This document shows positions 3,473 through 37,082 of a stretch of DNA of 64,000 bases, piece by piece. The position numbers and the translations under genes are program-made. The DNA is taken from positions 14,960 through 78,959 of the forward strand of contig JBGAKH010000011.1 in the NCBI GenBank assembly GCA_044224515.1, written 5' to 3'. The stretch comes from Chlorobiota bacterium (GTDB taxonomy: Bacteria; Bacteroidota; Ignavibacteria; Kapaibacteriales; NICIL-2). Each line of letters begins with the position of its first letter. Within the stretch, counting starts at the first letter, position 1. Below the pieces are notes generated by a model, which ran no database searches, was not told the DNA's origin, and saw only the letters and a program-made list of their open reading frames with translations.

Positions 3473-3572
3473 GAGTCTCGTCCAGAGCTCGGACAGTGCA
3501 CGAACACAGCACGATCAGCAGCTATCCACCCTTTGGCATGAGCGTCCGAATTCCTCTAATGTCACGAACGAC

Positions 3573-3607: not shown

Positions 3608-3637
3608 GCAATTCTCCATCTTTGAGAACTTCGGATT

Positions 3638-4868: not shown

Positions 4869-4898
4869 AAATCCTCCGTTATGGAACCGATGCTACTC

Positions 4899-17442: not shown

Positions 17443-17457
17443 ATTGGAAGTATGGTT

Positions 17458-18025: not shown

Positions 18026-19570
18026 GTGTCCATGATAGAAGTTGCTAATAAGAGGAATAATGATATGCGTACTTACATTGTGCTGATTCTTACAATGGCT
18101 CTCTTTTGTACAAGAATTGATGCTAGATCCGAGTTGCATCATTGGGTCACGAAAACTATTAAAGTCCCTGACTTTAAAATCACCTCCAAGTATTCGGTCG
18201 TTACAATCCAGGACATGATGAAAGTAGGCACCCAGACGTATTTAGTCCTCGGCTCAGCCGAATCTAGCCTTGGTTTGCCGGGTTTCAACAAATTGTATAA
18301 AACCTCTGATACTGGAGTAACACTGCAGGCAGTTACTAGTCAAATGTTTAGTGATTCACTGGGTCAAAATCGCTTTTTTGTACATGAGGATGGCCGCGGT
18401 TGCATTGTCGGCTTTCAACAACGCTACCTGACAAGTGATATCGGGTCTACCTGGAGCAGAATACAGGATCAACAAATGGAGTATTACCGAGGTTCTGATT
18501 CGTATGCTAACGTGATAGTAACAAATTCCCAGCGAGCCAGCATTTCGATCAGTGAAGATTTCGGTCAGTCGTGGCGTAAAATACCAATGCCGGACTCTTC
18601 TACGAATAGAACCAACATGATCAACTATCTTGTACTGGCTGACAGTGCATCTATGTATTTGCTTCGTCAAGATGTTAACTACAACACAGGCAGTGGACAA
18701 CTTCGTTTATTTTCGAGTAGAAATTTAGGAAAGGATTGGATGACATTGCGATGTCCGATTGAAGGGTTCGAGAACGATACTGCCGGAAATTGTAATGTAC
18801 AGGCAATCAAGTTTGTTAATCGTGGAAGTATTGGCTTGGCGTGCATTTCGTATCGAGATTCACTGAATACATTGGTTTACTCGATTGTGCGATCAACAGA
18901 CACCGGAATGCATTGGACGAAGATAGAGACATCACCGTTCGACCAAATGATTAATATGCCGAACCGCTTCTATTCTTATAGCCGAGATACCATTTTCATG
19001 ATCTATAGAAGTGGATGCATTAAAGTATCAACAGATGCTGGTCTATCATGGAGTTGGTTTGTAAAAGAAGTCCCTTGGTTTAAAGATGTAGGCAATACAC
19101 CTAACTATGTATCTTCTATGGGACCGATACTATTTGAGAGCACTAAGACAGCGGTCGCAGCGTTCGCAGGAAGACAAGACGGAGTGTTCAATATTATGTA
19201 CCTGGCAGACGGAGAACATGCCACTAGTGTTGAAGACGATACACTACCGGTGAGGAGTTTGTTGCTGAATTCAACGGTATATGTTGGTGAGTGCTATCCG
19301 ATGCCAGCTACTCGGGATCTTCAAATAGTAACAAACTTCACTCGTGGTTATGATCTTCAAGCTGTTTCCGTTGAAGTCTATGATTTGCAGGGCCAGCGGG
19401 TAGCGACAATGAGAAGTCCGGATGTTGTCTTTACTCCTCATATATGGGGTTCAGGTTGGTATACGCTTGGCATACCATTGGCAAATTTAGAGGTCGGAAC
19501 GTATATCGTTAATGTTTGTGATGGAAGAGGCAGTTGCCGGAGTGTCACGGTGTGTCACACACCTTACTAG
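18026..19570 (+). CDS. Secreted BNR-like repeat protein with T9SS CTD (paralog family B)
   Basis: Signal peptide; SEDFGQSW, STDTGMHWTK and STDAGLSWSW motifs; C-terminal CTD (VEVYDLQGQRV, GTYIVNV). Paralog of 50416..51918. Confidence 0.65.
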   Translation: MSMIEVANKRNNDMRTYIVLILTMALFCTRIDARSELHHWVTKTIKVPDFKITSKYSVVTIQDMMKVGTQTYLVLGSAESSLGLPGFNKLYKTSDTGVTLQAVTSQMFSDSLGQNRFFVHEDGRGCIVGFQQRYLTSDIGSTWSRIQDQQMEYYRGSDSYANVIVTNSQRASISISEDFGQSWRKIPMPDSSTNRTNMINYLVLADSASMYLLRQDVNYNTGSGQLRLFSSRNLGKDWMTLRCPIEGFENDTAGNCNVQAIKFVNRGSIGLACISYRDSLNTLVYSIVRSTDTGMHWTKIETSPFDQMINMPNRFYSYSRDTIFMIYRSGCIKVSTDAGLSWSWFVKEVPWFKDVGNTPNYVSSMGPILFESTKTAVAAFAGRQDGVFNIMYLADGEHATSVEDDTLPVRSLLLNSTVYVGECYPMPATRDLQIVTNFTRGYDLQAVSVEVYDLQGQRVATMRSPDVVFTPHIWGSGWYTLGIPLANLEVGTYIVNVCDGRGSCRSVTVCHTPY

Positions 19571-19583
19571 CATAATCTTTTTG

Positions 19584-20417
19584 CTACCACAGCTGTGAGC
19601 GGCTCCGAGTTTTAGCAATCTCCTCCGCAATATCAATCAAATCCTGTCTTTGAATGACGATGAAAGGAGATGCCGGAATAGTTATTTCCAGCGTCTCCTT
19701 TTTCGTTAGTGCCAGACCTTTGTACAAGGCCGCTGCTTCACTCAGGCGCACGATTGATTTTGAATGTGTTGTCGTATCCTCGCCCTTCTTCTCAGCTCTC
19801 TTCCTTCTCTTCTCAGCTTTGCTCAAGGTGTCTGTGAGCTTCTTGCGCCGGGACTTATCACCGGTGCCAGTGAGCGCGTAGTACATCATCCAGAAGTACT
19901 TGCGTGAGCGTGGGGTAATGCGAACCGTATGAGTGGATCCGAACTGCTGCGCTCGAGCCTGAGCTTTGTTTGAGCTAATGCTTACTTGGTTCGTACCGGA
20001 AACGCTCACCTCAATACTGGCAGCAAGTCCTCCACCGGTTCGTGCGAGTGTTCGCTCGGTGCTTTTTCCCACTGCTGCTTAAGCAACGCGAGTGCTGGCA
20101 GCCAGTGGCTTCCACCTGTCGCTTCCACCCGAGAACGGCGTGATACCAGCATCGCTTGAGTTGTAGCGTCCGCGCTCTTTAAAGTTCTGCTCGAACGATG
20201 CTCGCAGCACCTCGGCAATTTGGCGCATAGCCTCTGGCGGTATCTGTGCAGTCTCAGTTCGGTAATGACATTCGCGACGGAAACGATGTGTCGACCGTCG
20301 TGGAAATGGGGGGGCACTGGGAGTGGATACTCCATAGATGGCAAGAATCGAGCTGTCGACAATGTGTTTATAGAACGATAGTGGAGGTCGTTGAAGTACG
20401 AATTGGTGTATCCTCAT
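19584..20417 (-). pseudogene. Phage virion-morphogenesis (Mu G-like) gene copy inactivated by an in-frame stop
   Basis: Two same-frame ORFs (19584..20072 and 20079..20417) together align at ~90% aa identity with the 237-aa product of 51979..52692. Where the intact copy has Tyr (RVA-Y-AAVGKS), this copy has TAA. The N-terminal ~35 codons are replaced by unrelated sequence. Confidence 0.7.
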
Positions 20418-20419
20418 CC

Positions 20420-20530
20420 GGCATCAACAGGACAAAAAATGTATGGCGGCTTAACCACATACGTTCGGTACTACAATGAGGGACGATTACACAGTAGTCT
20501 GAAGCACCAAACACCGGTTGCAGTTTATCA
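20420..20530 (+). mobile_element. Remnant 3' end of an IS3-family (rve/DDE integrase) transposase gene
   Basis: Translates to ...YGGLTTYVRYYNEGRLHSSLKHQTPVAVYHQKK*, the conserved C-terminal tail of IS3-family OrfB transposases. No upstream catalytic domain is present. Confidence 0.55.
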
Positions 20531-20606
20531 CCAGAAGAAGTAGTTTAGACGTTGCATCCGGGACAGAAAAAGATTTACGCAGAAATCCTAAGATTTTGTC
20601 CGAAGA

Positions 20607-22961
20607 ATGGGGGGGCTCAACCGAAGCAAAAGAACTTACATTGATATATTTATGAAAAGAAGTCGTTTCTGGCATATCCTTTTACTGATGTTCACAGTTC
20701 ATCTTACAACGATTGCCGATGCAGGAATTCCAGTTTTTACCAGTTTAGGTACAGACTACACCGGGTCAGTTGTAGTTGATAATACGATATTTATATACGG
20801 TGAGAATGGCGTTATGATGCGTTCAACCGATCAAGGGTCTAATTGGACAAGATTTACTATTCCGGGACCGTTTCGTAAGATCAAAGGTGTCGTGGCTATT
20901 GGGCATTCAATTTATGCCGCAGATCAGCTCGCCGAGATCTACACTACTGACATAGTAACTTGCAATTGGCAGCCTCTACATGCTGTGTCAGATATGCTTG
21001 AGAATGACTCTGTGGTTGGGATGTTCCGGGAGAAAAACGCCGGTAATATTGTGATAGTGTCTCACAATAGTGTCACATATTTTGATTCCACGTTTCAAGT
21101 GAAGAGAACACTACTGGATAGTTCTCTTAACATTCAGTATGCAAGTATAGTTGGAAACACTATTATGGTCGCTAACAACGTGAAAACTTACATACTTGAT
21201 CGTAACAACGGTTACAAACCTGTGGTTTGGAAGAAGCCCGCTTATTTACAGTGTTCAAACTGCCTCCTCCCAAGCAATGTATGCGATGCTGGAGATAGCT
21301 TATTGGTCAAATACGGAATAGTATGGTATATAGTATCTCCTGATATGCAACAAGGTCGAGTAGTGGAACACAGCGATGGACTTGTTGCGGAGTACCGTGA
21401 CAGATTCACTGTCTTAGAGAATAGTTATGATGCTCCAACTGACCATTCGACGCTTCGATCACGATGTTTCAGAGAAACCAGCGGCCAAACCATTCGCTTC
21501 GACACGTTGATTCAGGAAGATGAGTACTATGTTGGCAGGGTTTACTTAAGCCGCATGAGAACGGTTGGTGATTCGACAATAGTTGCATTTGGAAAGAATA
21601 ATACAATCGTTGTTAGTCGAGACGGTGGACGGACATGGCATTTTAAATCTTATAATGCATATGGTCCTGTGCTTAAAATGCGCGACTCACTGTATGGAAT
21701 CACCAACGATCGCATTAGAGTCATTACGACAAAGGATGGCAATTGTACGTGGCTGCCGCAAAAAATGACTTGTGATACTACCGACCATGGCTGGTTTTCC
21801 GGAGGAGACGTATTCTACCTGGACAGTGTAGCGCTGATGGTTTGTAATAATGCCAACGGATGGACTAAAACGAACTACCGATTCATTTCCGAAAAGGATG
21901 GCGATGTGGTATATGGTAACATACCAGAGTGGAGAAGTGTATATTCAGTAAATAGTATGAGCGTTCTCAAAATTGACGATAGGTGGTCAATTTATCGTAG
22001 TGGACAAGGAGTAAGCTCCATGACTCAGGATTACTGGTACACCACTTTATCTATTCTCGATTCGAATTATAAACCGTTAAGTGTTAAGCTTTATGATTCA
22101 CTTCGAATCAGGAATGTCATAGACTTAGGATTAAAGAAACTCACCATATTTACGTCATATAGGGTCGATGACTATAACACCTCGAATTTATATGAATCAA
22201 CAGACGGAGGAGAATCTTGGACAAAATATACTACGAAAATATCTGCTGGTAATAACTATGATGGTCAGATAGTTAGCAGTGGTGACTTTCTGTTTGTGCC
22301 TAGTAACTATAAAGATTCTATTGGGTCTCGACACAATAGAATGGAGTGGATTGAAGCAAATAAGTATGAGAGTCATGGGGTCTGTTTTGAAGACACGGTG
22401 ACCGATATTACCTCGGTTGTAAACTGGAAAGGCAAAATATATTACGGGCAATTTGGTAGCTTAGTATTGCACTACGCCAAAAGTAGTGACCCTTTAGATT
22501 GGCTCAAGATCGCCCCATTTGGATATCTGTCGTATCACTGTTTTGGAACCCAGGGAGATTGTATGCTTGTTTCTCTTGCAAAAATAAGCTCAGGTAGTAT
22601 TTCCTCGGCAAGACAGTACGGATTATTGACATATTCCGGCGAATTGAGTTCTGTCAGTGAGGCCCATGTAGAAAATGATGCTAGTTTGTATCTACATTCG
22701 ACATATCCAAATCCGTGCAAAACTGTATGCAAATCTCACTATTCACATGATGACCAAGACGAGATTGGTGCGGCAAATATTAGTCTATATGACATTAACG
22801 GATTCGTTATTGATACTCAGGGATACAGTGTTGACGTTGCAAACACAACACTGCTAGAATGCGATATCACTCTTGACCTTACAAAAATACCGAGTGGAAT
22901 ATATGTACTTAGGGTTCGAAGTGGTACTGGTGCTAAATCTGTAAAAATATTGAAACTATAG
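20607..22961 (+). CDS. Secreted BNR-like repeat protein with T9SS CTD (paralog family A)
   Basis: 784 aa, signal peptide, STDQGSNWTR / SRDGGRTWHF / STDGGESWTK motifs. C-terminal ISLYDINGFVID...GIYVLRV CTD. Paralog of 15124..17442. Confidence 0.65.
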   Translation: MGGLNRSKRTYIDIFMKRSRFWHILLLMFTVHLTTIADAGIPVFTSLGTDYTGSVVVDNTIFIYGENGVMMRSTDQGSNWTRFTIPGPFRKIKGVVAIGHSIYAADQLAEIYTTDIVTCNWQPLHAVSDMLENDSVVGMFREKNAGNIVIVSHNSVTYFDSTFQVKRTLLDSSLNIQYASIVGNTIMVANNVKTYILDRNNGYKPVVWKKPAYLQCSNCLLPSNVCDAGDSLLVKYGIVWYIVSPDMQQGRVVEHSDGLVAEYRDRFTVLENSYDAPTDHSTLRSRCFRETSGQTIRFDTLIQEDEYYVGRVYLSRMRTVGDSTIVAFGKNNTIVVSRDGGRTWHFKSYNAYGPVLKMRDSLYGITNDRIRVITTKDGNCTWLPQKMTCDTTDHGWFSGGDVFYLDSVALMVCNNANGWTKTNYRFISEKDGDVVYGNIPEWRSVYSVNSMSVLKIDDRWSIYRSGQGVSSMTQDYWYTTLSILDSNYKPLSVKLYDSLRIRNVIDLGLKKLTIFTSYRVDDYNTSNLYESTDGGESWTKYTTKISAGNNYDGQIVSSGDFLFVPSNYKDSIGSRHNRMEWIEANKYESHGVCFEDTVTDITSVVNWKGKIYYGQFGSLVLHYAKSSDPLDWLKIAPFGYLSYHCFGTQGDCMLVSLAKISSGSISSARQYGLLTYSGELSSVSEAHVENDASLYLHSTYPNPCKTVCKSHYSHDDQDEIGAANISLYDINGFVIDTQGYSVDVANTTLLECDITLDLTKIPSGIYVLRVRSGTGAKSVKILKL

Positions 22962-25295: not shown

Positions 25296-26495
25296 GTGCC
25301 CAAGGTAAATTTCTACATCGAGTCCTACAAAAACCAGCTCGGAGAGTCGCAGCTTCGAGCTCAGATGACCTATGGCAACAAGCGCCTTCGCGTGCCTACA
25401 CTTTTGAGTGTCAAACCAGAGGACTGGGATCCAGTCAAACAGCAGGTTCGAAAGTCTGCGAAGGGGAGCGCCAAACAAAATCACATCCTATCAACCATCA
25501 AGGCACGATTGCTCGACATCTTTCAAGACTTCCAGCTCGCGGGACAGTTCTCGCCCACGGTGGAGCAGATCACAGGTGAGTTCAATAGAAGTACGAACCA
25601 GAAGACCGAGACTATAGAGACGCTCTTTGATGCGTTCATAGCAGAGAAGAGCCCGCTCGTGACAGCAAACCTCATCAAGCACTACGTTATAGCCTTCAAT
25701 CACCTAAAGGCATTCTCAAAGGCAGCACGTGCGCCACTGGTGCTGCAGAACATGGATGAAGGATACTACACTCGCCTGCGCGGGTACCTGGTGGAGCAGG
25801 GCATGCTCAACAACACGATCGGCAATCAGATCAAGTATCTCAAAGCGTTCCTTGCATGGTGCGACCGGCAGGGCTACGCAGTGCACCCTGGTTATAAGCT
25901 ATGGAAGAAGCTTAAAGAGAAGGTGAGTATTGTGACGCTGACCGAAGACGAGCTTGTAGCGATCGAGGCGCTTGATCTTTCGGCCACTCCAGGACTGGCG
26001 CGCACCCGGACACTGTTCTTGCTTGAATGCTACTCCGGTCTCAGATGGTCAGACGCCTCCCGAATAACGAAAGCTTCGCTCCACTCGGACTACTTGCTAG
26101 TGAACGTTCGTAAAACACAAGAGCCCTTGCGTATTCCGCTCACAAGACAGCTCAAGTTGGTAGTGGAGACACTGCTATCCGGCGAGATGCCAAAGGTCTC
26201 AGCACAGAAGTTCAACGATCAGATTAAAGAGGTCTGCCGGCGTGCTGGGATTGACGCCGAGGTGCAGCACGTCAGACATAGTGGGGCTGAGAGACGAGAG
26301 GCGCATTTCGCTAAGTGGCAGCTTGTTACATCGCACACCGGACGTCGGACGTTTGTAACCTTATCACTGCAGAAAGGAATGCGGCCGGAGGTCCTGATGC
26401 AGATCACCGGCCACAAAGACATTGGGACTATGATGCGCTACGTCAATATCTTGGGGGAGACCACTGCGAAGGAGATGAGGAAGGCATGGAGCTAA
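25296..26495 (+). CDS. Tyrosine-type site-specific recombinase (phage integrase)
   Basis: C-terminal catalytic region with HTGRRTF (Arg), GHKDIGTMMRY (His...Tyr). N-terminal arm/SAM-like domain typical of Bacteroidota integrases. GTG start. Confidence 0.8.
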   Translation: MPKVNFYIESYKNQLGESQLRAQMTYGNKRLRVPTLLSVKPEDWDPVKQQVRKSAKGSAKQNHILSTIKARLLDIFQDFQLAGQFSPTVEQITGEFNRSTNQKTETIETLFDAFIAEKSPLVTANLIKHYVIAFNHLKAFSKAARAPLVLQNMDEGYYTRLRGYLVEQGMLNNTIGNQIKYLKAFLAWCDRQGYAVHPGYKLWKKLKEKVSIVTLTEDELVAIEALDLSATPGLARTRTLFLLECYSGLRWSDASRITKASLHSDYLLVNVRKTQEPLRIPLTRQLKLVVETLLSGEMPKVSAQKFNDQIKEVCRRAGIDAEVQHVRHSGAERREAHFAKWQLVTSHTGRRTFVTLSLQKGMRPEVLMQITGHKDIGTMMRYVNILGETTAKEMRKAWS

Positions 26496-26511: not shown

Positions 26512-27267
26512 CTATACGATACGTAACACCGGGCCTGCTGACACATTGGGGGTCTCATTCCATTCTTTGCCGAGTAATTCCCGTCCGTTTGCTTTCTTGC
26601 TTCGTCTCAGACCGTCTGCACCCCAAGTACCCCACTGCTTGAAGAAGAAAGCAGTATTCTGTCTCTCACATTGCAACTTAATATTGAGAGCCCACTCTTC
26701 CTTCATCGGCCGAGCATTTGCACCACTTTCACCACCAACGATCACCCAATGAATTCCCTTAAGATTCAACTTGCCAACGTCCTCTAAAAGAGGCTCAATC
26801 GAGAGAAATCGAATCTTTGCTTTGATTTTTCTCAAGACGTCAATGCGGTTCTTCTTAAGAGAATTCTCCACCGTCACCCCTAACCAAACATTCTCAGGAC
26901 ATTGCCTGCTTCTGAAATATCTTTCAAGTCTATCTTCTCTCTTTGTGAGAATCTGGTATGTGTGCCAAGGGGTTTCAACAATTGTATCGAATACTCTATC
27001 TAAGAAATCATCAGGCATCTTTTCATGAAACAAATCACTCATTGAGTTGACGAAGTACTTTGTCGGTTTCTTGACAGATTTCGGTGCGTCAAGTCGTTCA
27101 GGCAGAAGGTTGAATTTGAACCCTTTTTCATACCCAGGTGTTCCCATCGCTTTCAATCTGCGCGCCATAACTTCAGCATAACAGAATTTGCATCCTGCCG
27201 ATACCTTGGTACAACCAACACTAGGGTTCCAAGTTGCCTCGGTCCACTCAATCTTACTTTGACTCAT
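26512..27267 (-). CDS. Phage Gp37/Gp68-family (three-Cys-motif, DUF5131-like) protein
   Basis: N-terminal KIEWTEATWNPSVGCTKVSAGCKFCYA, i.e. the IEWT...WNP...GC...GC.FCYA signature of the Gp37/Gp68 family. Overlaps the upstream partner gene by 14 nt. Confidence 0.6.
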   Translation of the reverse strand: MSQSKIEWTEATWNPSVGCTKVSAGCKFCYAEVMARRLKAMGTPGYEKGFKFNLLPERLDAPKSVKKPTKYFVNSMSDLFHEKMPDDFLDRVFDTIVETPWHTYQILTKREDRLERYFRSRQCPENVWLGVTVENSLKKNRIDVLRKIKAKIRFLSIEPLLEDVGKLNLKGIHWVIVGGESGANARPMKEEWALNIKLQCERQNTAFFFKQWGTWGADGLRRSKKANGRELLGKEWNETPNVSAGPVLRIV

Positions 27268-28435
27268 GACCCCTTGATGCTAGTGAGAAAACGGCTAAAA
27301 CTTCATTCTTACTGTAGTGCTCGTATGCAATATAGAAACTGTTCGCTTTACGAACTTCGCCAGAATTGTAAGTTACTATTACCACCCTGCGTTTTACGAG
27401 ATCAGCCAGGACTTTTCGAGCATGTTTTGGAAGGTACGAGTTTGTAACCGTTATCTCGTACAATTGAACATTGGTCCTTGACTCGCTTACTGCTTGAAGT
27501 ATTAGACCACGTAGCTTGACAAGGTTTCGTTCAGACTCTTCCAACAACTCCTCATCCGCAAAGAGAGATTCTGTTCCGGATGGCTGTTCCCAAGTCTTAC
27601 CATATCTTGGGTCGATTAAGAACAGGGCTTCCAGTGCCTTCTCCAAACCATATATGTGTGGCGTTACGAAAAAAAGCGCAAAAATTTGACCCTTAACATC
27701 ACTTGTAATACGGAGTGATTTAGCGTAGTATTTGTCGCCGTACTTCAGCGCCTCAGTAAGATACTCAATGAGCTCAAACCTGCTTGGTAACTTGGACCAT
27801 ATGTTGTGCTTTGAATCGAAAAAGCTGCGTAGTAGCTCTTGTAGTGGCTTAAAAAATACCTCTTCTGAGTCTTTGGCAGGACCTATAAAACGCTGTATAT
27901 GGCTAATAGGTGAAAACAAAAATATTTCTGTACGGCCATTAGACAACAATTTATCGAGCAGTACTTTTGTTAGGCCCTTGTAGCCCCAAGGATCTATTAA
28001 AATCAAATTCTTAACAGTTGAATTCTGTCTAACGATGGCAGAATGAACCTTTTCTAAAAACTCCAGCCCGTCGTCGTGACTAGTTTCAATGTTGAATTTG
28101 ACTGTTGTAAGGTCATACTTTGACAAAGCACTTTGAAGCTCCAAGATCCGTTTTTTTTTGTCGTTAAAATGAAGATTTAGACGGCGACTTGCGCTATCAT
28201 CAAATTTCTCCGTCAACTCAATCGCTGTATCGACAGTCCTGATGGGACTACCTTTTCCATCGCCGTTATAGAGACCGGGTCCACAGTAAGCATCATATAT
28301 ATTAATACACGAAATGTAATCAATGTTGAGCATTACAGATAGATACCGAGTCAAGTAAAGTTGCCAAAAATCAAGTTTGGCCTCTGAATGTTTCTTTAGT
28401 GTTTGAGTATGTCTAGTCGGAGCTTTGTTAGTCAT
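27254..28435 (-). CDS. Partner protein of the three-Cys-motif enzyme (TcmP-like?), Rossmann/MTase-like motifs
   Basis: 393 aa, translationally coupled to the Gp37/Gp68 gene. IYDAYCGPGLY (motif-I-like GxG) followed ~100 aa later by LILIDPWGY (motif-IV-like D-P-x-aromatic). Confidence 0.4.
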   Translation of the reverse strand: MTNKAPTRHTQTLKKHSEAKLDFWQLYLTRYLSVMLNIDYISCINIYDAYCGPGLYNGDGKGSPIRTVDTAIELTEKFDDSASRRLNLHFNDKKKRILELQSALSKYDLTTVKFNIETSHDDGLEFLEKVHSAIVRQNSTVKNLILIDPWGYKGLTKVLLDKLLSNGRTEIFLFSPISHIQRFIGPAKDSEEVFFKPLQELLRSFFDSKHNIWSKLPSRFELIEYLTEALKYGDKYYAKSLRITSDVKGQIFALFFVTPHIYGLEKALEALFLIDPRYGKTWEQPSGTESLFADEELLEESERNLVKLRGLILQAVSESRTNVQLYEITVTNSYLPKHARKVLADLVKRRVVIVTYNSGEVRKANSFYIAYEHYSKNEVLAVFSLASRGHESK

Positions 28436-28710: not shown

Positions 28711-29547
28711 CTATACACGTCTCGATTTTAGAAAATTCGAAAACGCCGAACACGCGACTAAAAAGAACTTTGCTTCATCAAAGTCGACTTCATGGTCATC
28801 TTCGATAAGTGCATGGCGTATGCCTCCTGCGTCACTTGTGTATCCGTACAGTGACGAGAAAGCTTTTCGAATCGCACCGTGTAACTGTCCTCTTTCTTGG
28901 AGAAATTTTAGAGCGTCCTCAATGCGAGCATTAGCGTCGCCTGTAACTAAAACGCTCGCGGACTCTATGGAAGATATTGACTCTTTTACCGAATTGCGGT
29001 AGTCCGGAGTTTCTCGGTGTGTTAAGTGACGAAGTGCCGTAGTCAAGTGAGTAGAAACGCTCTCCCATTGATCTTCAAATGTTATGGCCGACTCAATTGA
29101 CGAAATTTCAATAGTATCAGTTATAGGTGTTATGATGCCGTTTATTATCCGGTATCCACATAGCTCCTTCTCAAACTCGGCATTGAGTAAATTGGATGCA
29201 GTAGCTACTCTGTTCCGGGCCATAACGCTCCAAATATACTCAATGAGATCATAGACTTTATACCAAGGGGTAGCTCTCCCAAAAAACCAACTCTCTAATT
29301 CCTGTCTGAAACTTAAATATGATAAGGTGCCGTTGATGTCTCGTGGAAAGTTGTTCAATTTATAGATAAAAAACTCGCACCAGATGAGCTTGCAAATCCT
29401 CGTTGTGTTCGGCTTTTCATCATGCGGAATTCTTTCCAAGACATTAGTTGTAACACAATTCCAAATACGAACTCTAAGGTTATAATCTATGTCGTTTAGT
29501 TGTAAGTCCACTCTCGGTGGTAAATATCCATTTCTAGTAGAGAACAA
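28711..29547 (-). CDS. Hypothetical protein, possible abortive-infection (AbiJ/HEPN-like) protein
   Basis: 278-aa cytoplasmic singleton in a defense island. R/H-rich C-terminal segments (ALRHLTHRETPDYRN, DAGGIRHALIEDDH). Assignment is tentative. Confidence 0.25.
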   Translation of the reverse strand: MFSTRNGYLPPRVDLQLNDIDYNLRVRIWNCVTTNVLERIPHDEKPNTTRICKLIWCEFFIYKLNNFPRDINGTLSYLSFRQELESWFFGRATPWYKVYDLIEYIWSVMARNRVATASNLLNAEFEKELCGYRIINGIITPITDTIEISSIESAITFEDQWESVSTHLTTALRHLTHRETPDYRNSVKESISSIESASVLVTGDANARIEDALKFLQERGQLHGAIRKAFSSLYGYTSDAGGIRHALIEDDHEVDFDEAKFFLVACSAFSNFLKSRRV

Positions 29548-29595: not shown

Positions 29596-30567
29596 TTAAA
29601 ACGAAAACGTATGGCTGGCATTTAACTGCACACTCGTGACAAAGTAGTCTTGATCAAGCTTGAAGGCTCCACCTTGCTTGCCGGTGATGAAGATACACTC
29701 AGATTTGATCGAGATTTTTGTGTCAGATGACGTAGTAACATTCACACAGATGCCGGCATAGGCATTCGTAAACTCATGGTTGCCGTGAAAGATTCCGGGG
29801 AGATTGCCACTTGCAAGACCCATATATCGGACGCCACCGTATAGGGCTCCAGTCTCACCATAGCCGATTTGACCTGAAAGATCAAAAGTTCCGACGCCGG
29901 TCTGAATGGACTTGCGAACCTTAGAGTTTGTGTCCGTTGGATTGCTCAACTCAGAGTACCCAATTTGAACGCTTCCCATAGTGAAGGTCCCGACGAACCC
30001 AGCAGAGAATCTTTTGCTGGGATCTTCTTGTTTTGAAAGGTTAAAAGCCTGAATGAGGTCTACCTGGAGTGACAATCCCAGTTCGATAGTGTGCAAAGGC
30101 TGTTGGAGTATGCGTTTTAGGTTGGCCAATGTTGATATCTCTCCCGTTGTGTCACCGACCGGCAGTCCAGATCTCAGATAGCCACCTGCAGCAAAGCCAT
30201 TTGAAAGTGATGTGACTGGAGCTTTCAAATTGATGGTAGGTTGTACTGAGAGCGAAGACAGAGGGGTGAAGAATCCTGTTAAGGCATCTAGCTTACTTGT
30301 GGTGTCGGTAGCGTCTTTTTTCATACTAGCGGCATGCGTCGAGATAGAAGAAGGAAGAGCATCTAGTGCAGCGTTAATTTTTGTAGCGTCAACAGCTTTA
30401 TCTTTTAATAAGTCACCGAGTACTATTCGCGTGATGTTCAACGAATCGATAACCGGTGCTGCCTTTACTTTTGCTTTGCCTCGCACAGTATTTGTTATAT
30501 CGAACTGCGAGTATGAGCTTACGCTGACGAAGGCAAGTGTCGTCAGAACCGCCACGATGAACTTCAT
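29596..30567 (-). CDS. Outer-membrane beta-barrel-like secreted protein
   Basis: Probable start at MKFIVAVLTTLAFVSVSSYSQ (signal peptide). Alternating amphipathic beta-strand pattern. C-terminal ...ASHTFSF ends in an aromatic residue, as in OMPs. Confidence 0.45.
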   Translation of the reverse strand: MKFIVAVLTTLAFVSVSSYSQFDITNTVRGKAKVKAAPVIDSLNITRIVLGDLLKDKAVDATKINAALDALPSSISTHAASMKKDATDTTSKLDALTGFFTPLSSLSVQPTINLKAPVTSLSNGFAAGGYLRSGLPVGDTTGEISTLANLKRILQQPLHTIELGLSLQVDLIQAFNLSKQEDPSKRFSAGFVGTFTMGSVQIGYSELSNPTDTNSKVRKSIQTGVGTFDLSGQIGYGETGALYGGVRYMGLASGNLPGIFHGNHEFTNAYAGICVNVTTSSDTKISIKSECIFITGKQGGAFKLDQDYFVTSVQLNASHTFSF

Positions 30568-31011
30568 TGTCGATCCCCGATTAGTTGGAAATAGGGCACC
30601 GATGTGCACATCAGTGTCCGCTTGATGACTTTGGGTAGTACCTATTTACTCGTGGGAGCTAAAACGACATAACAATGTCCATACATGAGTTGACATGCAG
30701 GAATCTGTCTGCCGATAACGTGCGGTGTGGATCGCACACCTCCAAGTGTGGATGGGAGGTTGGCCCTAATATAACATGGTTTTAGATTAATGCAAGTACT
30801 GTCGTGCATCAATATCGAGTTAAAACAACTTCTCTGAAGTTTTGAGGACTTGTTTGTTGATTACGGGGCCGGGGTGTTAAATAGTAAAGTAGTTGCTTAC
30901 ACCATCAGTTCTACGCACTAGGCCAGGAAGCATGATGAACAGCTTACCACGGGAGGCGTAGACTGTGCCGGGGATGGAGAGGCTAGTTTTGGCCATTATG
31001 AATCTCTTCTG

Positions 31012-31467
31012 TCATGGCCTCTTAAGCCACAAAAAACATGTTGGCTGGGGAAAGTGTATTGCAGTAGTTTGAACTAGATACTCCTTACCGTCGACTACTC
31101 GAATGACAGCATGCCAGCCTGCATCTGATGGACCTTGTGTATAGTTGTATTGACCTGATGCAAACTCAAGCGCTATTGGATCAAATCGAAGTGATCCTTT
31201 CCAAGTTCTTGTAGTACCCTGCCCCAAATTATCAATGCCACTTACTTCAAACATGCCTGCGTTTTTAATGCTTGTTTCTAAACGCACCTTACATTCTGGC
31301 TGAGTAGTTAGTGGTTTGCGTGTGACCGGATTGCAAACAATGTAGTCTCCAGCAATTTTTTTTGATCTGAGATAAAGTAACAATGGACGAACTATGAATT
31401 CGTAACCAACTAAGAAAATCACTGACGCGACGAGATTCAGAAGAATGTTATCTAACACATCACACAT
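31012..31467 (-). CDS. Small membrane-anchored protein (1 N-terminal TM)
   Basis: 151 aa with N-terminal TM helix ILLNLVASVIFLVGYEFIV. Lies 25 nt downstream of the MTase::Mrr gene on the same strand. Confidence 0.4.
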   Translation of the reverse strand: MCDVLDNILLNLVASVIFLVGYEFIVRPLLLYLRSKKIAGDYIVCNPVTRKPLTTQPECKVRLETSIKNAGMFEVSGIDNLGQGTTRTWKGSLRFDPIALEFASGQYNYTQGPSDAGWHAVIRVVDGKEYLVQTTAIHFPQPTCFLWLKRP

Positions 31468-31492
31468 ATGAGCTCCTAATTCATGGTTGCTA

Positions 31493-33151
31493 CTACAGCC
31501 CTAACTGGTCCTGTTGGCCACGTCGTTCTATTTGTGCTTTCTTGAAGTTGAGTGCACCAACACCCAAGTCTGGATATTCAGCCCTCTTCGTTTTGTTCAG
31601 TAATTGCTCGATTGTGAGGATCTGCACCTTGGGATACTGCCGTCCGATCGCGGAGTCATAATATCCGGCAGTTATAGCCTCAGTCTCCATTGGCTTGGTG
31701 GGTGCTGCCAACGTAACGAAGAGCCCAATGGATGCCTTCTCGCGGTCCACGACGTGCGCAAGGTCGCGCACCATGGCAACATTTACATTGTCACCACCTT
31801 TGACCGACACGACGATCTTCTTTGCAGCACCGGCGTCATCTTGGAAGTAGATGAGTCCATCGATGCCACCATCAGCGCCTTTCTTTTTGCCTTGAAAAGG
31901 CTGAGCGTTGACTAGTGAGCATGCCCACCATTGGAATTGATACTTGTCGCGCAGGGCAAGGTCCTTTGCGCTGTCGAGATCTTTCGGAGTTCCCTCGACG
32001 TCAAACTTGATACCTGGAAAGGCATCACGTAGTCTTTTCTCGATCAGAGAAATTGCAAGGTGCGTGATGTCTATGCCGATCCATTGCCGGCCGAGTTTCT
32101 GTGCTGCATGGACGGCTGTGCCGCAACCGCAGAAGGGATCCAACACAACACCTGAATCTTCTGTGGATGACCGAATGATCCTTTCTAAAAGCGCGATGGG
32201 TTTCTGAGTTGGATAACCAAGACGCTCTAAGGCTTGAGGATTTACTGGTGGGATATCTACCCATATATTCTGCAGGGGAACACCTGGCATTTCGTCAGCG
32301 TACTGAAGAAGAGTTGGCGTGCCAGTCCTAGTGTAACGCAATAGACCTTGGGATTCGTACTCCTCCATTTTTTCACGTTTAATGGCCCAGGTTCTGGTCG
32401 AAGCAGGCAACCTACCCTTCCATTCGTAAAGTAGCGACGCCGATCCCGAACTGTGTCGCGGAGCATCCAGTGGAACGGTCCGATAGTATCTCCCGTTTTC
32501 GTCCTTCTTAAAATGCGTATTGTAATATTCCTCTCGATACGCGGTGTGCTGTGTGTGCCAAAAAGATTTGCTGCTTTTCGTGTAATATAGAATAGTGTCG
32601 GAAACACGACCAAACGCCTTTGGATCATTATGGGCGTTCGCTCGTTTCCAAATTATTTCATTTTTGAACATTGCGTTCCCAAACACACCATCTAACAAAA
32701 TCTTGAGATAATGACTTGCAGTGGAGTCGCAATGAAGAAAGAGCGACCCCGTGGACCTTAGTACTCGGTGCAATTCAAGTAGCCGGTTTGCCATCATCAC
32801 TAGATACGCCATCATGTCATTCTCACCAAGGAACGAACGCAGCGCTCGAATCATCTCCGCGACATCAGTATTGCGCTGATGCAGGATCTCATTGAACTCA
32901 CGCTCAGCCTGTTCTCCCCAGTGCCATGAATCCTCAAAGGCCGTGATCTGTGCTTCGGACTGGTGACCTTTGGGGGACTTGAACAGGAGGTTATAGTCCC
33001 GCTTCGAGTTGAACGGCGGATCCAAGTAGATCAGGTCGACAGACTCGGACGCGATGTGGTCGCGCAGGATGTTGAGGTTGTCGCCGAAGAAGAGTTTGTT
33101 CATATCATTTCCAGTCCCTTTTGAGTCAAAAAGATAGGGTAGGTCCGCCAA
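31493..33151 (-). CDS. N6-adenine/N4-cytosine DNA methyltransferase fused to a C-terminal Mrr-type PD-(D/E)XK nuclease domain
   Basis: Motif IV IYLDPPFNS precedes motif I VLDPFCGCGTAVHAA (beta-class amino-MTase order). The C-terminal ~130 aa carry GADGGIDGLIY...KKIVVSVKGG, the DGGIDG/(V/I)xxK signature of Mrr_cat restriction-endonuclease folds. Confidence 0.7.
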   Translation of the reverse strand: MADLPYLFDSKGTGNDMNKLFFGDNLNILRDHIASESVDLIYLDPPFNSKRDYNLLFKSPKGHQSEAQITAFEDSWHWGEQAEREFNEILHQRNTDVAEMIRALRSFLGENDMMAYLVMMANRLLELHRVLRSTGSLFLHCDSTASHYLKILLDGVFGNAMFKNEIIWKRANAHNDPKAFGRVSDTILYYTKSSKSFWHTQHTAYREEYYNTHFKKDENGRYYRTVPLDAPRHSSGSASLLYEWKGRLPASTRTWAIKREKMEEYESQGLLRYTRTGTPTLLQYADEMPGVPLQNIWVDIPPVNPQALERLGYPTQKPIALLERIIRSSTEDSGVVLDPFCGCGTAVHAAQKLGRQWIGIDITHLAISLIEKRLRDAFPGIKFDVEGTPKDLDSAKDLALRDKYQFQWWACSLVNAQPFQGKKKGADGGIDGLIYFQDDAGAAKKIVVSVKGGDNVNVAMVRDLAHVVDREKASIGLFVTLAAPTKPMETEAITAGYYDSAIGRQYPKVQILTIEQLLNKTKRAEYPDLGVGALNFKKAQIERRGQQDQLGL

Positions 33152-33153
33152 CG

Positions 33154-33699
33154 TTACTTCTTTAATCGCTTATCTTCAGTTTGAATTATGTCCTCCATCC
33201 ATTCGTCGATTATTACTTTAACGACATACCAAACAGCTAGTATGACGCTAATTGTTGTTGCTGATAGTGCTAAGCATAATGCTGCCGTCCAATCTCGTAA
33301 GACCAGCCCAAAACTAATTTGTGCTGTTGATGTTAGATATGATAAGAGTACGCTATATAAAAGTAACTTACTAAGATTCTCCATTGGGGTGAACTTGTTC
33401 TCGATGTTTGGATTTTTCGTTCGAGCATCGGCGTATTTCTTCTCATAATTATCATTTTCAAACACTTCTTTAGCCTTTGCCAATATGAATGTCTTCATAG
33501 ATAGTAGAAAGCTTCCAGCTGTGATAAAGCCTGTAAACATGGCAGGTCTTATCTTTTCGAAAGTTTCCAAGAATTTTGCATCACAATTGACAATGTGATA
33601 GACAATCGCACCTACGCCTACAAATACGATAGATGAAGTTAGTAAAATACCTCTTGGTGTGGGTGAGAATATATTCAATGTGTGGATGGTCGAATTCAT
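33154..33699 (-). CDS. Small 4-TM membrane protein
   Basis: 181 aa with four hydrophobic helices. Overlaps the upstream gene by 4 nt (ATGA), and its stop abuts the MTase start. Confidence 0.45.
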   Translation of the reverse strand: MNSTIHTLNIFSPTPRGILLTSSIVFVGVGAIVYHIVNCDAKFLETFEKIRPAMFTGFITAGSFLLSMKTFILAKAKEVFENDNYEKKYADARTKNPNIENKFTPMENLSKLLLYSVLLSYLTSTAQISFGLVLRDWTAALCLALSATTISVILAVWYVVKVIIDEWMEDIIQTEDKRLKK

Positions 33700-34655
33700 G
33701 AATTTATCACATCGCGTGCTTCAGTGTTGGCCAAATCAATTAAATGGCTAACCAATCTAGATGAGCTTAGATCCGCAGCCAATGTCTCGGCAGTGTAGTG
33801 TATGTTAGCAAAAATGTCATTGAAATTGACACGTTCCACAATCATCTTGTCCGATGTTGCTAGAGAATCGAAATGTCGATAGTTGTCATCGGAATCCAAT
33901 CCAGTTATTTTGTATTGAATCTCATTGTTGCTGCTGACGAAACTACGTAAAAACTGCTTCAACTGTCCAGCCATTCTCGATTCACGACGAACAACAAATT
34001 TCTCAGTCCTGCGCTCAACGAACTCTCTTAAACGCGCGTATCCTCGAGGTAGCTGGCGGAGTTGTGCATGCTCTACAGAAAACTCAAAGCCTGAGACTGA
34101 CTGAATGGCATTAAGAAAATCATCCAAGTTATTAGTATTCATAATCAAGATAGGATTTACAAGCGACTCTTGCCATTGCTTCTTGATGCGTGCTTTTTCT
34201 ATAGGGGTCAAATCGTTGTCTGGAGATTCGTAGTGGGAATTTTCTAACACTCCATATTTTCTCCGGATAAAAGTAAAAAATTCGGAAATGGATGTAGACC
34301 CCGAATAGTGCTGATATAGACCGTGCAGTAGTTTTGGATTATGACTATCAATACGCAGTAAAAAGTGATTGAACTCGGCCATCTTTTCATTGTCGTCGAA
34401 TCTCTGAGGGTCTACAGTAAAAGCTTGAGTCGTGCCCGTTATTTTGATAAAAGCATCCATGTTCTTGATGCGCAGCAATACGCCACACCAATATGGATAA
34501 TCGGCATCGGTTATATTAGCGAAGGGAAGCATTCCATAAATGATGTTGCCTCTATACACTTCTACAGCGGTGCTTGTATTAATATCATTAACAAGCTCAT
34601 CTGCTGTAGTGACACCAGTTAATAGTATGCTAAAAGCGTATGTAAAAACTTCCAT
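33696..34655 (-). CDS. Hypothetical cytoplasmic protein (first gene of the MTase::Mrr operon)
   Basis: 319 aa, no recognisable motif. Translationally coupled to the 4-TM gene. Confidence 0.4.
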   Translation of the reverse strand: MEVFTYAFSILLTGVTTADELVNDINTSTAVEVYRGNIIYGMLPFANITDADYPYWCGVLLRIKNMDAFIKITGTTQAFTVDPQRFDDNEKMAEFNHFLLRIDSHNPKLLHGLYQHYSGSTSISEFFTFIRRKYGVLENSHYESPDNDLTPIEKARIKKQWQESLVNPILIMNTNNLDDFLNAIQSVSGFEFSVEHAQLRQLPRGYARLREFVERRTEKFVVRRESRMAGQLKQFLRSFVSSNNEIQYKITGLDSDDNYRHFDSLATSDKMIVERVNFNDIFANIHYTAETLAADLSSSRLVSHLIDLANTEARDVINS

Positions 34656-34973: not shown

Positions 34974-35951
34974 TTACAACCCACCCCGAATACCAAAACC
35001 AACACTCAACCCTCGATCCGCGTCGTAATGAATCGTGGCACTACCTTGCTCTCCTAGACCTAGTCGAAGTCCGCCGCAGGGTTGCCAATCCGTACCTGAA
35101 CCGGTATAGACCTGTTGATTCGAGTAAATAGAATACTCACCTGTATAGTATGCTGCTCCAAGGTCAATTGACGTGTTCTTCGTTATCGGAATACTGATCC
35201 CAAATGAGATACCGCTCATGCTCAGCTCTCCCATCGGGAATACATCTTTTGATGGCTGCAGGAAGGATGTATACTCAGCCCACACATAAGAAACCCTGGC
35301 AATCACACCAGCACCACCGATTGTAGTTGACGCCCGGCTTGACGCAAGGGACAATGAAAACCCCAAGTCAAGGCTATTGCGAAATGCCGCAAGATAATCG
35401 TCGTCACTGTTAGTTATGTCGCAAGTGGATGCGCAATACTCTAGCTTTGTTAGATAAGCGTTCGACCCATTGTGTTTTTGCTCTATGCTCAGAACTGCAT
35501 CCATTTCGTTGGGCATTCCACAGCGCGCCGACCATCTATATAGAAGCTCATTCTCATTCGGCTGGCTGAATGAACCTGATCCGTAATCACTTGCAAGCGA
35601 ATCCTTGGCCTGCTTGAATGCTGCTAGTACGCTTGAATTTAAACTAAGTACTGATTGCCTGAACGTAACGACCGACTGCCCACTGAAGTAAACGATAACA
35701 ACCTGTTCGGTTGTTAGGGCGGAACTCGTTTTGACGTACTTCCTGTACTCGGCAACATCTACAGATGGCTTGTAGCCAAGGGCTAAAATGGCTTTCTGAA
35801 AACCAAGTGTATCTGTTGGGATCTTGACGACCATTTGCTCATCAAGGATATATATTCTCGGGCACAATGTAGGGGAGCTCCATAGGCACGTCACGTCAAA
35901 CGCAATGGCAGAAATGAGTATTAAAAATCTTCGCATCAAGCAGAATGCCAC
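34974..35951 (-). CDS. Secreted/lipoprotein beta-rich protein co-transcribed with the prophage repressor
   Basis: Signal peptide (RRFLILISAIAFDVTC). Gly/Ser/Tyr-rich beta-strand-like C-terminal half. Start codon lies 4 nt downstream of the repressor stop. Confidence 0.45.
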   Translation of the reverse strand: MAFCLMRRFLILISAIAFDVTCLWSSPTLCPRIYILDEQMVVKIPTDTLGFQKAILALGYKPSVDVAEYRKYVKTSSALTTEQVVIVYFSGQSVVTFRQSVLSLNSSVLAAFKQAKDSLASDYGSGSFSQPNENELLYRWSARCGMPNEMDAVLSIEQKHNGSNAYLTKLEYCASTCDITNSDDDYLAAFRNSLDLGFSLSLASSRASTTIGGAGVIARVSYVWAEYTSFLQPSKDVFPMGELSMSGISFGISIPITKNTSIDLGAAYYTGEYSIYSNQQVYTGSGTDWQPCGGLRLGLGEQGSATIHYDADRGLSVGFGIRGGL

Positions 35952-35954
35952 AGC

Positions 35955-36647
35955 TTAAAGCTTAGGCTTGTAGTTTTTAATGTCAGTGTGAACAGACAGT
36001 ACAACACCTTGAAGTACAGCAGGTGCATCTTCGGTTAAAGGAATGTCTTTGTATCGTTTCGGGCTTTCGCTGCGCAGCCTCAACGTTCCTTCCTCTTCAA
36101 CCAGCCGCTTGACTAAAGTAACACCATTCCTGTTCGCGACGACAATCTGACCAATCAGATCGCGCCAATCCTTGCGAACCCTTGTACACACAAGGAAGCT
36201 CCCATCAAGTATCCCCGCGTAAACCATCGAGTCGCCGGAAGCGAACATGCAAAACCCATCTTCTGGTTTGTCTATTAGCGATGCATCCACTTCACGCTCA
36301 AATGGCGTCGGAGCATCGAGAGGGACTCCAAGCCCAGCGTTAGCATTCTGCGGATAGAACTTGATCTTAACAGTTGTTGCTGTAAAGCTGACGGAATTCT
36401 TAACAAACTGTGCATTAGATTTTGGAGCCTGGTGCGATGAAGCCAAATCGCCTGAAAATAGCATTTCAGCTGGCACCTCAAGTTTGGAAAGCACCAAATC
36501 ACGATCAATTGTGCCTCTGCGCTTCCAATTAGATATCGTAGCAGCTGTCACACCCAAGGCATCGGCCAGCTCTTTATCAGACCTAAAGCCCTGTGAATGT
36601 TTAATGTTGAAAATAATATTTTCAATCTGTAAAGATTTTGCTTGCAT
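35955..36647 (-). CDS. CI/LexA-like prophage repressor (XRE HTH + S24 peptidase domain)
   Basis: N-terminal HTH (ELADALGVTAATISNWKRRG). C-terminal S24 autopeptidase motifs FASGDSMV (Ser) and VTLVKRL (Lys). Confidence 0.8.
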   Translation of the reverse strand: MQAKSLQIENIIFNIKHSQGFRSDKELADALGVTAATISNWKRRGTIDRDLVLSKLEVPAEMLFSGDLASSHQAPKSNAQFVKNSVSFTATTVKIKFYPQNANAGLGVPLDAPTPFEREVDASLIDKPEDGFCMFASGDSMVYAGILDGSFLVCTRVRKDWRDLIGQIVVANRNGVTLVKRLVEEEGTLRLRSESPKRYKDIPLTEDAPAVLQGVVLSVHTDIKNYKPKL

Positions 36648-36708: not shown

Positions 36709-36906
36709 ATGGCTACAAATACAAAAGCAGTAGAAACACGTAGTGGCCCGAAACGCAGAACGTTAAGCGTGAACGAGAAAACGGTCGAGTTGATTGAACG
36801 GATAGCTGAGTCTCACGTGCCACGGTTGACGTATTCGCAGGTGATCGAGCTGGCAGTTGTAGGACTCGCAAAGGTGACGAAGCTAAAGCCAAGGAGAAAG
36901 AAATGA
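36709..36906 (+). CDS. Cro-like small DNA-binding protein
   Basis: 65-aa ORF divergent from the repressor across a 60-bp operator region. Confidence 0.4.
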   Translation: MATNTKAVETRSGPKRRTLSVNEKTVELIERIAESHVPRLTYSQVIELAVVGLAKVTKLKPRRKK

Positions 36907-37082
36907 GCACCACACTCGACAAAGTCCGCACGCGATCCAGCCGCGAAAGGCTAGCTCCCGATCTGGCATTCAAGCCAACAGAGGCGCAAAGCCGCTGGAT
37001 CATAAAAGAGGCAAAGCGCCTCAAGATCAAACGCACAGAGTTTCTTAGGCGAATTGTTCAGGTAGTGATGGAGGAGGCTTAA
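36903..37082 (+). CDS. Ribbon-helix-helix (CopG/Arc-like) small protein
   Basis: 59-aa ORF not in the supplied track: MSTTLDKVRTRSSRERLAPDLAFKPTEAQSRWIIKEAKRLKIKRTEFLRRIVQVVMEEA. ATGA overlap with the preceding gene; the KRTEFLRRIV pattern is typical of RHH proteins. Confidence 0.35.
   Translation: MSTTLDKVRTRSSRERLAPDLAFKPTEAQSRWIIKEAKRLKIKRTEFLRRIVQVVMEEA

Follow-up and report, generated by a model that had tools for sequence, protein, structure and literature searches.

A mosaic of probable independent cargo genes, including an apparent RexAB-like pair and a solitary methyltransferase-Mrr fusion gene, on an integrated element of a Chlorobiota bacterium

Results

Organization of the locus

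The locus is located in a 64,000-nucleotide stretch (hereafter the window) of contig JBGAKH010000011.1 in the Chlorobiota bacterium assembly GCA_044224515.1. The four open reading frames that an earlier note had reported from the letters of the sequence, here named genes A, B, C and D, were all found on the minus strand (Table 1). The intergenic distances are -4 nt between A and B (an ATGA overlap), 50 nt between B and C, and 25 nt between C and D. The four genes had been described as tightly packed and translationally coupled. The common strand and the short gaps agree with tight packing, but the overlap is confined to A and B, and translational coupling therefore holds only for that pair. 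In the identical contig L001, the start of gene C was likewise called at ATG 33103. Promoter and terminator scans found sites no more numerous than in shuffled sequence.

Table 1. Features of the locus, in positions of the window.
Feature	Position	Strand	Description
Gene A	33696..34655	-	319 aa; soluble protein of 36.8 kDa; in a two-gene exclusion module, proposed as the RexA-like sensor or activator
Gene B	33154..33699	-	181 aa, four hydrophobic helices; 4-nt overlap with A; proposed RexB-like inner-membrane effector
Gene C, open reading frame	31493..33151	-	552-aa reading; likeliest start ATG at 33103, giving 31493..33103, 536 aa
N6_N4_Mtase domain of C	32039..33040	-	Pfam match, residues 38-371 of the 552-aa reading
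Mrr_cat / NA-iREase1-like domain of C	31598..31942	-	Pfam match; D411, D415, S433-V-K435 (536-aa numbering)
Gene D	31012..31467	-	151 aa; N-terminal anchor helix, then beta-rich region; orphan
CI-like repressor (HTH + Peptidase_S24)	35955..36647	-	Peptidase_S24 2e-15, Phage_CI_repr 3e-7, phrog_4 4e-23
320-aa protein with signal peptide	34974..35936	-	Between repressor and gene A; not conserved with A-B

The genes are carried by an integrated element (~25.3-49 kb) that contains an integrase, the CI-like repressor, and replication and recombination genes. The region had been viewed earlier as a prophage moron island. However, no virion genes of the element were found within the window, so the label "prophage" is approximate.

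Genes A and B form a conserved and widespread pair

Genes A, B and D had no match in Pfam, NCBIfam or PADLOC. Gene A did match phrog_2802 (2e-10). For the A family, word-index searches retrieved no protein other than A, and three with the family profile as query; a full HMMER scan was needed to uncover the family. That scan brought up 118 further cluster representatives (clusters at 50% identity), proteins of about 300 aa. Gene A had been reported to have no recognisable domain, which still holds for the three databases named above, but the protein is not without relatives. A tblastn search of gene A against phages gave nothing. Loci were scanned with a narrower alignment of the A family (A2), as the first one (A1) was too divergent for this purpose.

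A homolog of B was found directly downstream of the A homolog in all 21 distinct loci, which comprised MAGs from seven lineages, nine IMG/VR contigs, a Kapaibacterium/Bacteroidota chromosome and the E. coli phage mEp460_4F5. Gene B has four hydrophobic segments in the hydropathy profile, confirming its earlier description as a 4-TM protein, and the B-type partners, compared in alignment A3, are four-helix membrane proteins of 156-193 aa that are tightly coupled to A. The hosts of the family include Bacteroidota/Kapaibacterium-type, Desulfobacterales, Geobacter, Desulfocurvus, Verrucomicrobiales, Planctomycetota, Phycisphaerales and Enterobacterales genomes, as well as phages. Of 5426 complete E. 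coli genomes, 219 (~4%) carry one lineage of the pair, which occupies the moron slot between Q and the lysis genes; an E. coli homolog pair is located, for instance, at positions 3856416-3857905 of the strain Combat2C1 record. The locus of the window itself was not found in complete E. coli genomes. The A-B genes are annotated "hypothetical protein", and they are recognised neither by Pfam and the PADLOC Rex models nor by PGAP.

The neighbours of the pair vary: Type III R-M and GmrSD-SLFN were found at other loci, and in E. coli prophages the pair sits in the Q-to-lysis slot. A CI-like repressor lies upstream of A-B in the window, on the same strand with one gene between, and one is also found upstream in locus L020. 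The repressor-adjacent position is not universal, with L025 and L032 among the exceptions; the neighbour is LpxB in L025, and in E. coli the pair lies in the Q-to-lysis region. A methyltransferase of another family than C was found within ~3 kb of A-B in three other loci; a loose association of the pair with methylation is thus conceivable.

The A-B pair resembles the Rex systems

Gene A has a RexA-like fold, in a partial match that covers 146 of its 319 residues. The Foldseek TM-scores in the fold search were low, the top BFVD matches did not include lambda RexA, and uncharacterised siphovirus proteins were all that BFVD returned. In the window, the A-B pair follows the cI-rexA-rexB gene order of lambda, downstream of the repressor and on the same strand, and lambda RexB is a small four-helix membrane protein with the same predicted topology as B (PMC11077077).

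There are also differences from lambda RexA and RexB (PDB ID 8TWQ). A and B have no detectable sequence similarity to them and belong to other PHROG families, A and B are 40 and 37 aa longer than their lambda counterparts, and the repressor is separated from A by an additional gene. The hhalign comparisons gave probabilities of 0.2% for the A-family profile against lambda RexA and 0.15% for the B-family profile against lambda RexB. HMM attempts with the same two pairings likewise gave no sequence link, and the A and B profiles found nothing among PDB sequences. The RexA homologs in the phage collection were too few and too close to yield a useful profile. While gene A falls into phrog_2802, lambda RexA falls into phrog_12654 and the other lambda Rex PHROG is 14878; gene B had no PHROG or PADLOC RexB match. 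The PADLOC RexA model matches lambda RexA at 9e-110 and the RexB model likewise matches lambda, and neither matched A or B of the window or any of eight family members that were examined from other A-B loci.

Similar divergence has been described elsewhere. Prophage P1 of P. putida encodes RexABpp (PP_5643/PP_5644), in which HHpred ties PP_5643 to RexA at 98% probability, and the experimentally validated RexBpp is likewise without a sequence-family link to RexB (PMC12894663). In contrast to PP_5643, gene A gave no hit in a comparison of its profile with the single RexA sequence. Seven published mutated residues, which alone represented RexBpp, had no match in 18 B homologs when membership of RexBpp in the B family was examined. 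Rex-like pairs of actinobacteriophages (Sbash gp30/31, CarolAnn gp44/43 and Butters gp30/31) also consist of a soluble and a membrane protein, are carried by temperate phages and exclude other phages, and some of them adjoin the immunity repressor (PMC11077077, PMC12894663). By their descriptions, they differ from A-B in having other hosts, in a gene order that is sometimes inverted and, for Butters, in swapped effector and regulator roles. Kiwa, which pairs the four-helix membrane protein KwaA with KwaB (DUF4868), was rejected as a candidate for A-B because no DUF4868 or KwaB match was found.

Taken together, A and B look like a divergent, unannotated relative of the lambda RexA/RexB abortive-infection pair. 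We consider the chances to be even that they represent a large family of RexAB-like abortive-infection modules, one that spans phyla and escapes current tools. Alternatively, the partial fold match may reflect a generic two-domain alpha/beta similarity, and the conserved pair may not be anti-phage at all: it could be an element-stabilising combination of a membrane toxin and a cytosolic antitoxin or regulator, or an accessory of lysis or transport. This reading appears unlikely.

Gene C is a probable solitary methyltransferase with an Mrr-like domain

Gene C was matched by the Pfam models N6_N4_Mtase (E 1e-42), Mrr_cat (2e-8, 34.7 bits; gathering cut-off 21) and NA-iREase1 (5.6e-9, 36.4 bits; cut-off 27), and by PADLOC MTase_II at 2e-66. 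The HMMER check thus supported its description as a beta-class methyltransferase with a C-terminal Mrr_cat domain, and the motifs DPPF, DPFCGCG, DGGIDG and VSVK were all found. DPPF (motif IV) is close to the N-terminus and DPFCGCGT (motif I) spans residues 322-329; both are invariant in 42 homologs (alignment A4). The less conserved middle of the methyltransferase domain is presumably the target-recognition region. Because of the DPPF motif, the modification is probably m6A.

At least 8000 database proteins belong to the C family at E <= 1e-10. The best 120 of these share 60-78% identity with C, and nearly all of them have its length and domains. The fusion is therefore not the unusual enzyme that it had been taken for. 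The family was solitary in nine loci with unrelated neighbours, on phages, plasmids and chromosomes, and neither a conserved adjacent restriction endonuclease gene nor any other conserved partner gene was found at these nine loci. The hosts include Streptomyces phages, rhizobial and actinobacterial plasmids, and chromosomes, and the gene is annotated "DNA methyltransferase" or a lone "DNA methylase". We read C as a self-sufficient solitary DNA methyltransferase that travels alone on phages, plasmids and chromosomes. It resembles the solitary methyltransferases of phages and plasmids in standing alone among variable neighbours, but it carries an additional, strongly conserved Mrr-like domain.

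The C-terminal domain aligned with E. coli Mrr in hhalign (E 9.5e-5), with GADGGIDG of C opposite TGDGGIDG of Mrr and the lysine of the xK motif kept. At the position of the catalytic glutamine of Mrr, however, C has S433, and the same SVK motif is present in 108 of the 120 close homologs. The domain had been proposed to be a PD-(D/E)XK nuclease with a VSVK motif; the aspartate and the lysine are indeed there, but the serine departs from the Mrr site. Whereas E. coli Mrr and the MspJI-family nucleases have a D...QxK site, glutamine is replaced by serine in C, whose domain is fused to a methyltransferase and not to a modification reader. A profile of the domain found nothing among PDB sequences, and our literature search found no characterisation of a methyltransferase-Mrr_cat fusion.

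Type IIG enzymes are about 1000 aa long and have a gamma-class methyltransferase. Like the Type IIG/IIC enzymes BpuSI and MmeI, C combines a methyltransferase and a PD-(D/E)XK-superfamily domain on one polypeptide. It is unlike Type IIG enzymes in its 536 aa, its beta-class motif order (DPPF before FxGxG), the C-terminal location of the nuclease-like domain and the non-canonical site. In Type IIG enzymes the nuclease comes first in the chain and its PD...ExK site is intact, as was shown for BpuSI (PMC3185434).

Judging from its sequence, the Mrr-like domain is most likely a DNA-binding or regulatory module, and C most likely shields the DNA of the element from restriction. We also considered that C is a self-contained, compact single-chain R-M enzyme with a C-terminal nuclease, in which a relocated acidic residue such as E455 completes the SxK site, as a relocated acidic residue does in Cfr10I-type enzymes. 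Across the 42 homologs D411, D415, S433 and K435 do not vary and E455 reaches at least 90% conservation, nearly all of the 120 closest homologs have kept the nuclease-like domain, and the highly conserved, mobile family has no separate restriction-enzyme partner, all of which would suit such an enzyme. Against it are the serine opposite the catalytic glutamine, the marginally better E-value of NA-iREase1, an "inactive REase" model, than of Mrr_cat, the occurrence of the gene as a lone "DNA methylase" in Streptomyces phages and plasmids, and a literature search that found nothing on such an activity. On balance, a single-chain R-M activity of C seems improbable.

Gene D is an orphan

Gene D has one N-terminal hydrophobic helix, as expected for the 1-TM protein reported earlier. 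It forms a singleton cluster; no relatives were found in phages (tblastn) or IMG/VR, and it is absent from all A-B and C loci. Its single-sequence AF2 model was poor (pLDDT 48). We regard D as a membrane-anchored orphan, for which no relationship to a partner could be detected.

The four genes do not travel together

No C-family gene and no D homolog was present in any of the 21 distinct A-B loci, and conversely none of the nine C-family loci contained A, B or D. The GC3 of C (0.55) also differs from that of A (0.40), B (0.36) and D (0.32). The earlier note had proposed that the four genes form one undescribed modification/restriction-plus-membrane-effector system, and had itself named a lack of conservation between the methyltransferase and its flanking genes as evidence against this; such a lack is what we found. 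Its suggestion that the membrane partners point to abortive infection fits the A-B pair.

The A-B adjacency in 21 of 21 loci, the solitary occurrence of C in nine loci, the GC3 contrast and the serine in place of glutamine lead us to regard the region, on its integrase-bounded element, as somewhat more probably than otherwise a mosaic of cargo genes that are independent of one another, consisting of the RexAB-type pair A-B, the solitary methyltransferase C and the orphan D. A single new system, in which C would act on self DNA as a methyltransferase and on foreign DNA as a restriction enzyme while B and D are abortive-infection effectors controlled by A, could draw on the common strand, the short gaps, the lack of a convincing terminator between the four genes and locus L010, where the other-family methyltransferase directly follows B on the same strand, but it is very improbable. 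It is largely refuted by the neighbourhood analysis, and the GC3 of C and the singleton D, for which no relatives were found, also speak against it.

Discussion

What is new here is the unrecognised A-B family, and this is where the interest of the locus lies. We propose that A and B would together work as a two-gene exclusion module of the RexAB type, which acts by abortive infection. If the analogy to RexAB of lambda and RexABpp of P. putida holds, the cytoplasmic A may detect the incoming phage, either by a DNA-protein intermediate or by one of the proteins of the phage, and would then activate B. B, in turn, would permeabilise or depolarise the inner membrane, so that growth would stop and the infection would be aborted.

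For the remaining genes, the locus carries a caution, as cargo genes that are packed tightly beside an integrase and a repressor need not form one system. Fusions of the methyltransferase-Mrr type are common and stand alone, and their conserved SxK domain merits a biochemical study of its own.

How RexA senses infection and how it gates RexB have been questions ever since the rII experiments of Benzer some 70 years ago. If our reading of A-B is true, a family that is distinct in sequence but structurally RexA-like would offer comparative and structural studies a wealth of natural variants. The family spans several phyla, and a tractable member is available in ~4% of complete E. coli genomes. 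Five RexAB-like systems were counted as described in a 2026 study on P. putida (PMC12894663). If A-B is indeed of this type, defence-finding tools under-count Rex-type systems, and Rex-type exclusion would be far commoner than those five suggest.

Gene composition of the candidate defence region

Four adjacent minus-strand genes, A to D, had been described in an earlier note as a single new defence system. ORF calling confirmed the four genes, but gene-neighbourhood conservation does not support the one-system reading: homologs of A and B occur in loci without C or D, and nine loci carry a C-family gene in the absence of A, B and D. The region is instead a mosaic of cargo genes. The translational coupling ascribed to all four applies only to A and B, whose 4-nt overlap is the only one among them; B and C are separated by 50 nt and C and D by 25 nt. 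The GC3 of C (0.55) is unlike that of A (0.40), B (0.36) and D (0.32), which fits separate acquisition.

For C, the likely start (ATG at 33103) agrees with the call in the identical Logan contig L001. Pfam searches bore out the predicted methyltransferase-Mrr_cat fusion in C, with matches to N6_N4_Mtase (1e-42), Mrr_cat (2e-8, exceeding the gathering score) and NA-iREase1 (5.6e-9). A simple hydropathy scan agreed with the predicted membrane topologies: B has four hydrophobic segments, and D a single helix at its N-terminus. No Pfam match was obtained for A, B or D, the methyltransferase was the only PADLOC match among the four genes, and an NCBIfam search revealed nothing further for them. Each of the four proteins was a singleton at 90% identity clustering, and the window locus was not found in complete E. 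coli genomes.

Features of the integrated element and its flanks in the window, and of the A-B pair in phage mEp460_4F5
Feature	Coordinates	Strand	Description
BNR/sortilin-repeat host genes	15124-22961 and 50416-51918		Low GC; flank the element on both sides
Integrated element	25300-49000		PDDEXK_1, AAA_23/SMC-like ATPase, RNase_T, Prim-Pol, SNF2-type helicase, integrase, CI-like repressor
Tyrosine integrase	25296-26495		Four-gene cluster lies between integrase and repressor
DUF5131 + TcmP pair	26512-28435	-	DUF5131 1.7e-104; "three-Cys-motif partner" TIGR04474 1e-32
AbiJ_NTD4 gene	28711-29547	-	278 aa; Pfam 2.6e-31; PADLOC candidate PDC-S32 2.8e-90
Signal-peptide proteins	29596-30609 and 34974-35936	-	About 320-337 aa; N-terminal signal peptides
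Gene D	31012-31467	-	ORF, 151 aa
Gene C	31493-33151	-	ORF; likely start ATG at 33103, giving 536 aa
Gene B	33154-33699	-	ORF, 181 aa
Gene A	33696-34655	-	ORF, 319 aa
CI-like HTH/S24 repressor	35955-36647	-	On the strand of A-D
Two small ORFs	36709-37082	+	65 and 59 aa; divergent from the repressor gene
A-B pair in L032 (mEp460_4F5, LR595868)	3501-4962		Between Q and lysis genes

The element had been called a prophage island. It has an integrase, a CI-like repressor and replication/recombination genes, but no virion genes were recognisable for it within the window, and it could be a satellite or a cryptic element instead of a full prophage. The flanking host genes place the insertion within a paralog cluster of BNR/sortilin-repeat genes, and the three left-flank proteins have Por_Secre_tail (type IX secretion) sorting domains. 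These domains, together with the Kapaibacterium/Bacteroidota origin of the closest A homolog, point to a host of the Bacteroidota type and not to an enteric one. The layout of the small plus-strand ORFs and the repressor gene resembles the lambdoid cI/cro switch. The DUF5131 gene overlaps the TcmP gene, a recurrent pairing found here directly beside the integrase, and the AbiJ_NTD4/PDC-S32 gene is another candidate defence gene of the same island. The two signal-peptide proteins bracket A-D; they have no family match and are not paralogs (BLASTP E 1.1).

Genes C and D

C matched at least 8000 database proteins at E ≤ 1e-10. The best 120 of these matches share 60-78% identity, and nearly all have the length and three Pfam domains of C; the few with a named source are from Planctomycetia, Kapabacteria, Anaerolineae, Betaproteobacteria, Pyrinomonadaceae (Acidobacteriota) and a Contendobacter MAG. 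In the nine loci lacking A, B and D, the C-family gene stands alone amid unrelated neighbours; they include the end of a prophage from activated sludge, a Planctomycetia island, a 1.9-Mb contig where the gene lies among housekeeping genes, gp49 of Streptomyces phage Triste next to the phage's serine integrase, and Mesorhizobium, Rhizobium and Microbacterium plasmids. C is thus independent, a common and solitary methyltransferase fusion. We found no literature characterising a methyltransferase-Mrr_cat fusion.

The C-terminal domain of C aligns with E. coli Mrr (hhalign E 9.5e-5), pairing GADGGIDG with TGDGGIDG and VVSVKGG with VYVQAKRW. Mrr has a PD-QxK site (PMC12707154), and the second pairing therefore places S433 at the Gln position of the Mrr D...QxK site. 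Ser replaces Gln in 108 of 120 close homologs; among 42 aligned homologs, D411, D415, S433 and K435 are invariant and E455 nearly so. VSVK had been taken as a PD-(D/E)XK element; its Ser is the residue at the Mrr Gln position. The domain is therefore strongly constrained yet not a canonical nuclease. One possibility is a role in DNA binding or regulation, in keeping with the marginally better E-value that the Pfam "inactive REase" model, NA-iREase1, gave over Mrr_cat; alternatively, the domain may hold a rearranged active site.

D has a beta-rich remainder after its N-terminal helix, and its single-sequence model was poor (pLDDT 48). No relatives of D were found in cluster, phage and IMG/VR searches or in the A-B and C loci.

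A and B form a conserved pair

A had been described as lacking any recognisable domain. This holds for Pfam, but HMMER run in full against 1.84 billion cluster representatives revealed 118 other related proteins of about 300 aa, with the common motif DFNFF...GRGLYQxYHxS. The closest homolog (P0122) is from a Kapaibacterium/Bacteroidota genome. Loci were drawn from sources including seven MAGs (Desulfobacterales, Verrucomicrobiales, Geobacter, Planctomycetota, Phycisphaerales, Desulfocurvus and Enterobacterales), nine IMG/VR viral contigs, the P0122 locus and E. coli phage mEp460_4F5. In all 21 distinct loci, the A homolog was followed by a B homolog of 156-193 aa (phmmer E 1e-14 to 1e-33). This B homolog has three or four membrane segments and overlaps the A homolog or begins within about 20 nt of it. 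None of the 21 contained a C-family gene, a D homolog or one of the two signal-peptide proteins that bracket the cluster. No Pfam or PADLOC model was matched in common by 51 A-family members.

Among complete E. coli genomes, 219 of 5426 carry a pair of the mEp460 type, in the slot between the Q antiterminator and lysis genes, with both genes labelled "hypothetical protein". In the mEp460_4F5 record, the A homolog is labelled hypothetical and the B homolog (4414-4962; hmmsearch 7e-38) is unannotated. In a Desulfobacterales MAG (L007, 3746-11775), A-B is flanked by a GmrSD_N-SLFN/AlbA_2 protein and a Type III R-M system (Res + Mod), a typical defence island. In a Planctomycetota MAG (L010, 6939-8896), a ParB_N-N6_N4_Mtase fusion gene lies about 80 nt after A-B on the same strand, a second case of a methyltransferase directly after A-B, although of a different family from C. 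A loose link of A-B with methyltransferases, prompted by this locus, is a residual uncertainty.

Comparison of A-B with Rex systems

The AlphaFold2 model of A, built from the family alignment, was confident (pLDDT 86, pTM 0.78), and a Foldseek search against the PDB ranked phage lambda RexA (8twq_A) second. The lambda genes rexA (279 aa) and rexB (144 aa; product with four membrane helices) follow cI immediately and share its strand (PMC11077077). In the window one gene separates CI from A and B; a viral locus (L020) also has a CI-like repressor, 2 kb upstream of A-B. In the Pseudomonas putida prophage pair RexABpp (PP_5643/PP_5644; products of about 37 kDa and of 181 aa or more), two genes lie between CI and the pair, and the four-helix partner has no RexB homology (PMC12894663). 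RexABpp was first classed as a Rex-type pair on evidence equivalent to that for A-B, and experimental validation came afterwards (PMC12894663).

The sequence comparisons argue against membership of A and B in the RexA and RexB sequence families: hhalign gave a probability of 0.2% or less for each comparison, the lambda Rex proteins and A-B belong to distinct PHROGs, and the PADLOC RexA/RexB models gave strong scores for lambda and no match to any of the eight proteins of the A-B family that were tested. No PADLOC model matched A or B of the window. Because architecture and modelled fold are alike in the absence of a sequence-level link, we call A-B a RexAB-type module outside the RexA/RexB sequence families. 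By analogy, A would sense infection and then activate B, which would compromise the membrane and arrest growth, so that infection is aborted. The A-B family, probably a widespread and unannotated RexAB-like exclusion module, is the interesting part of the region.
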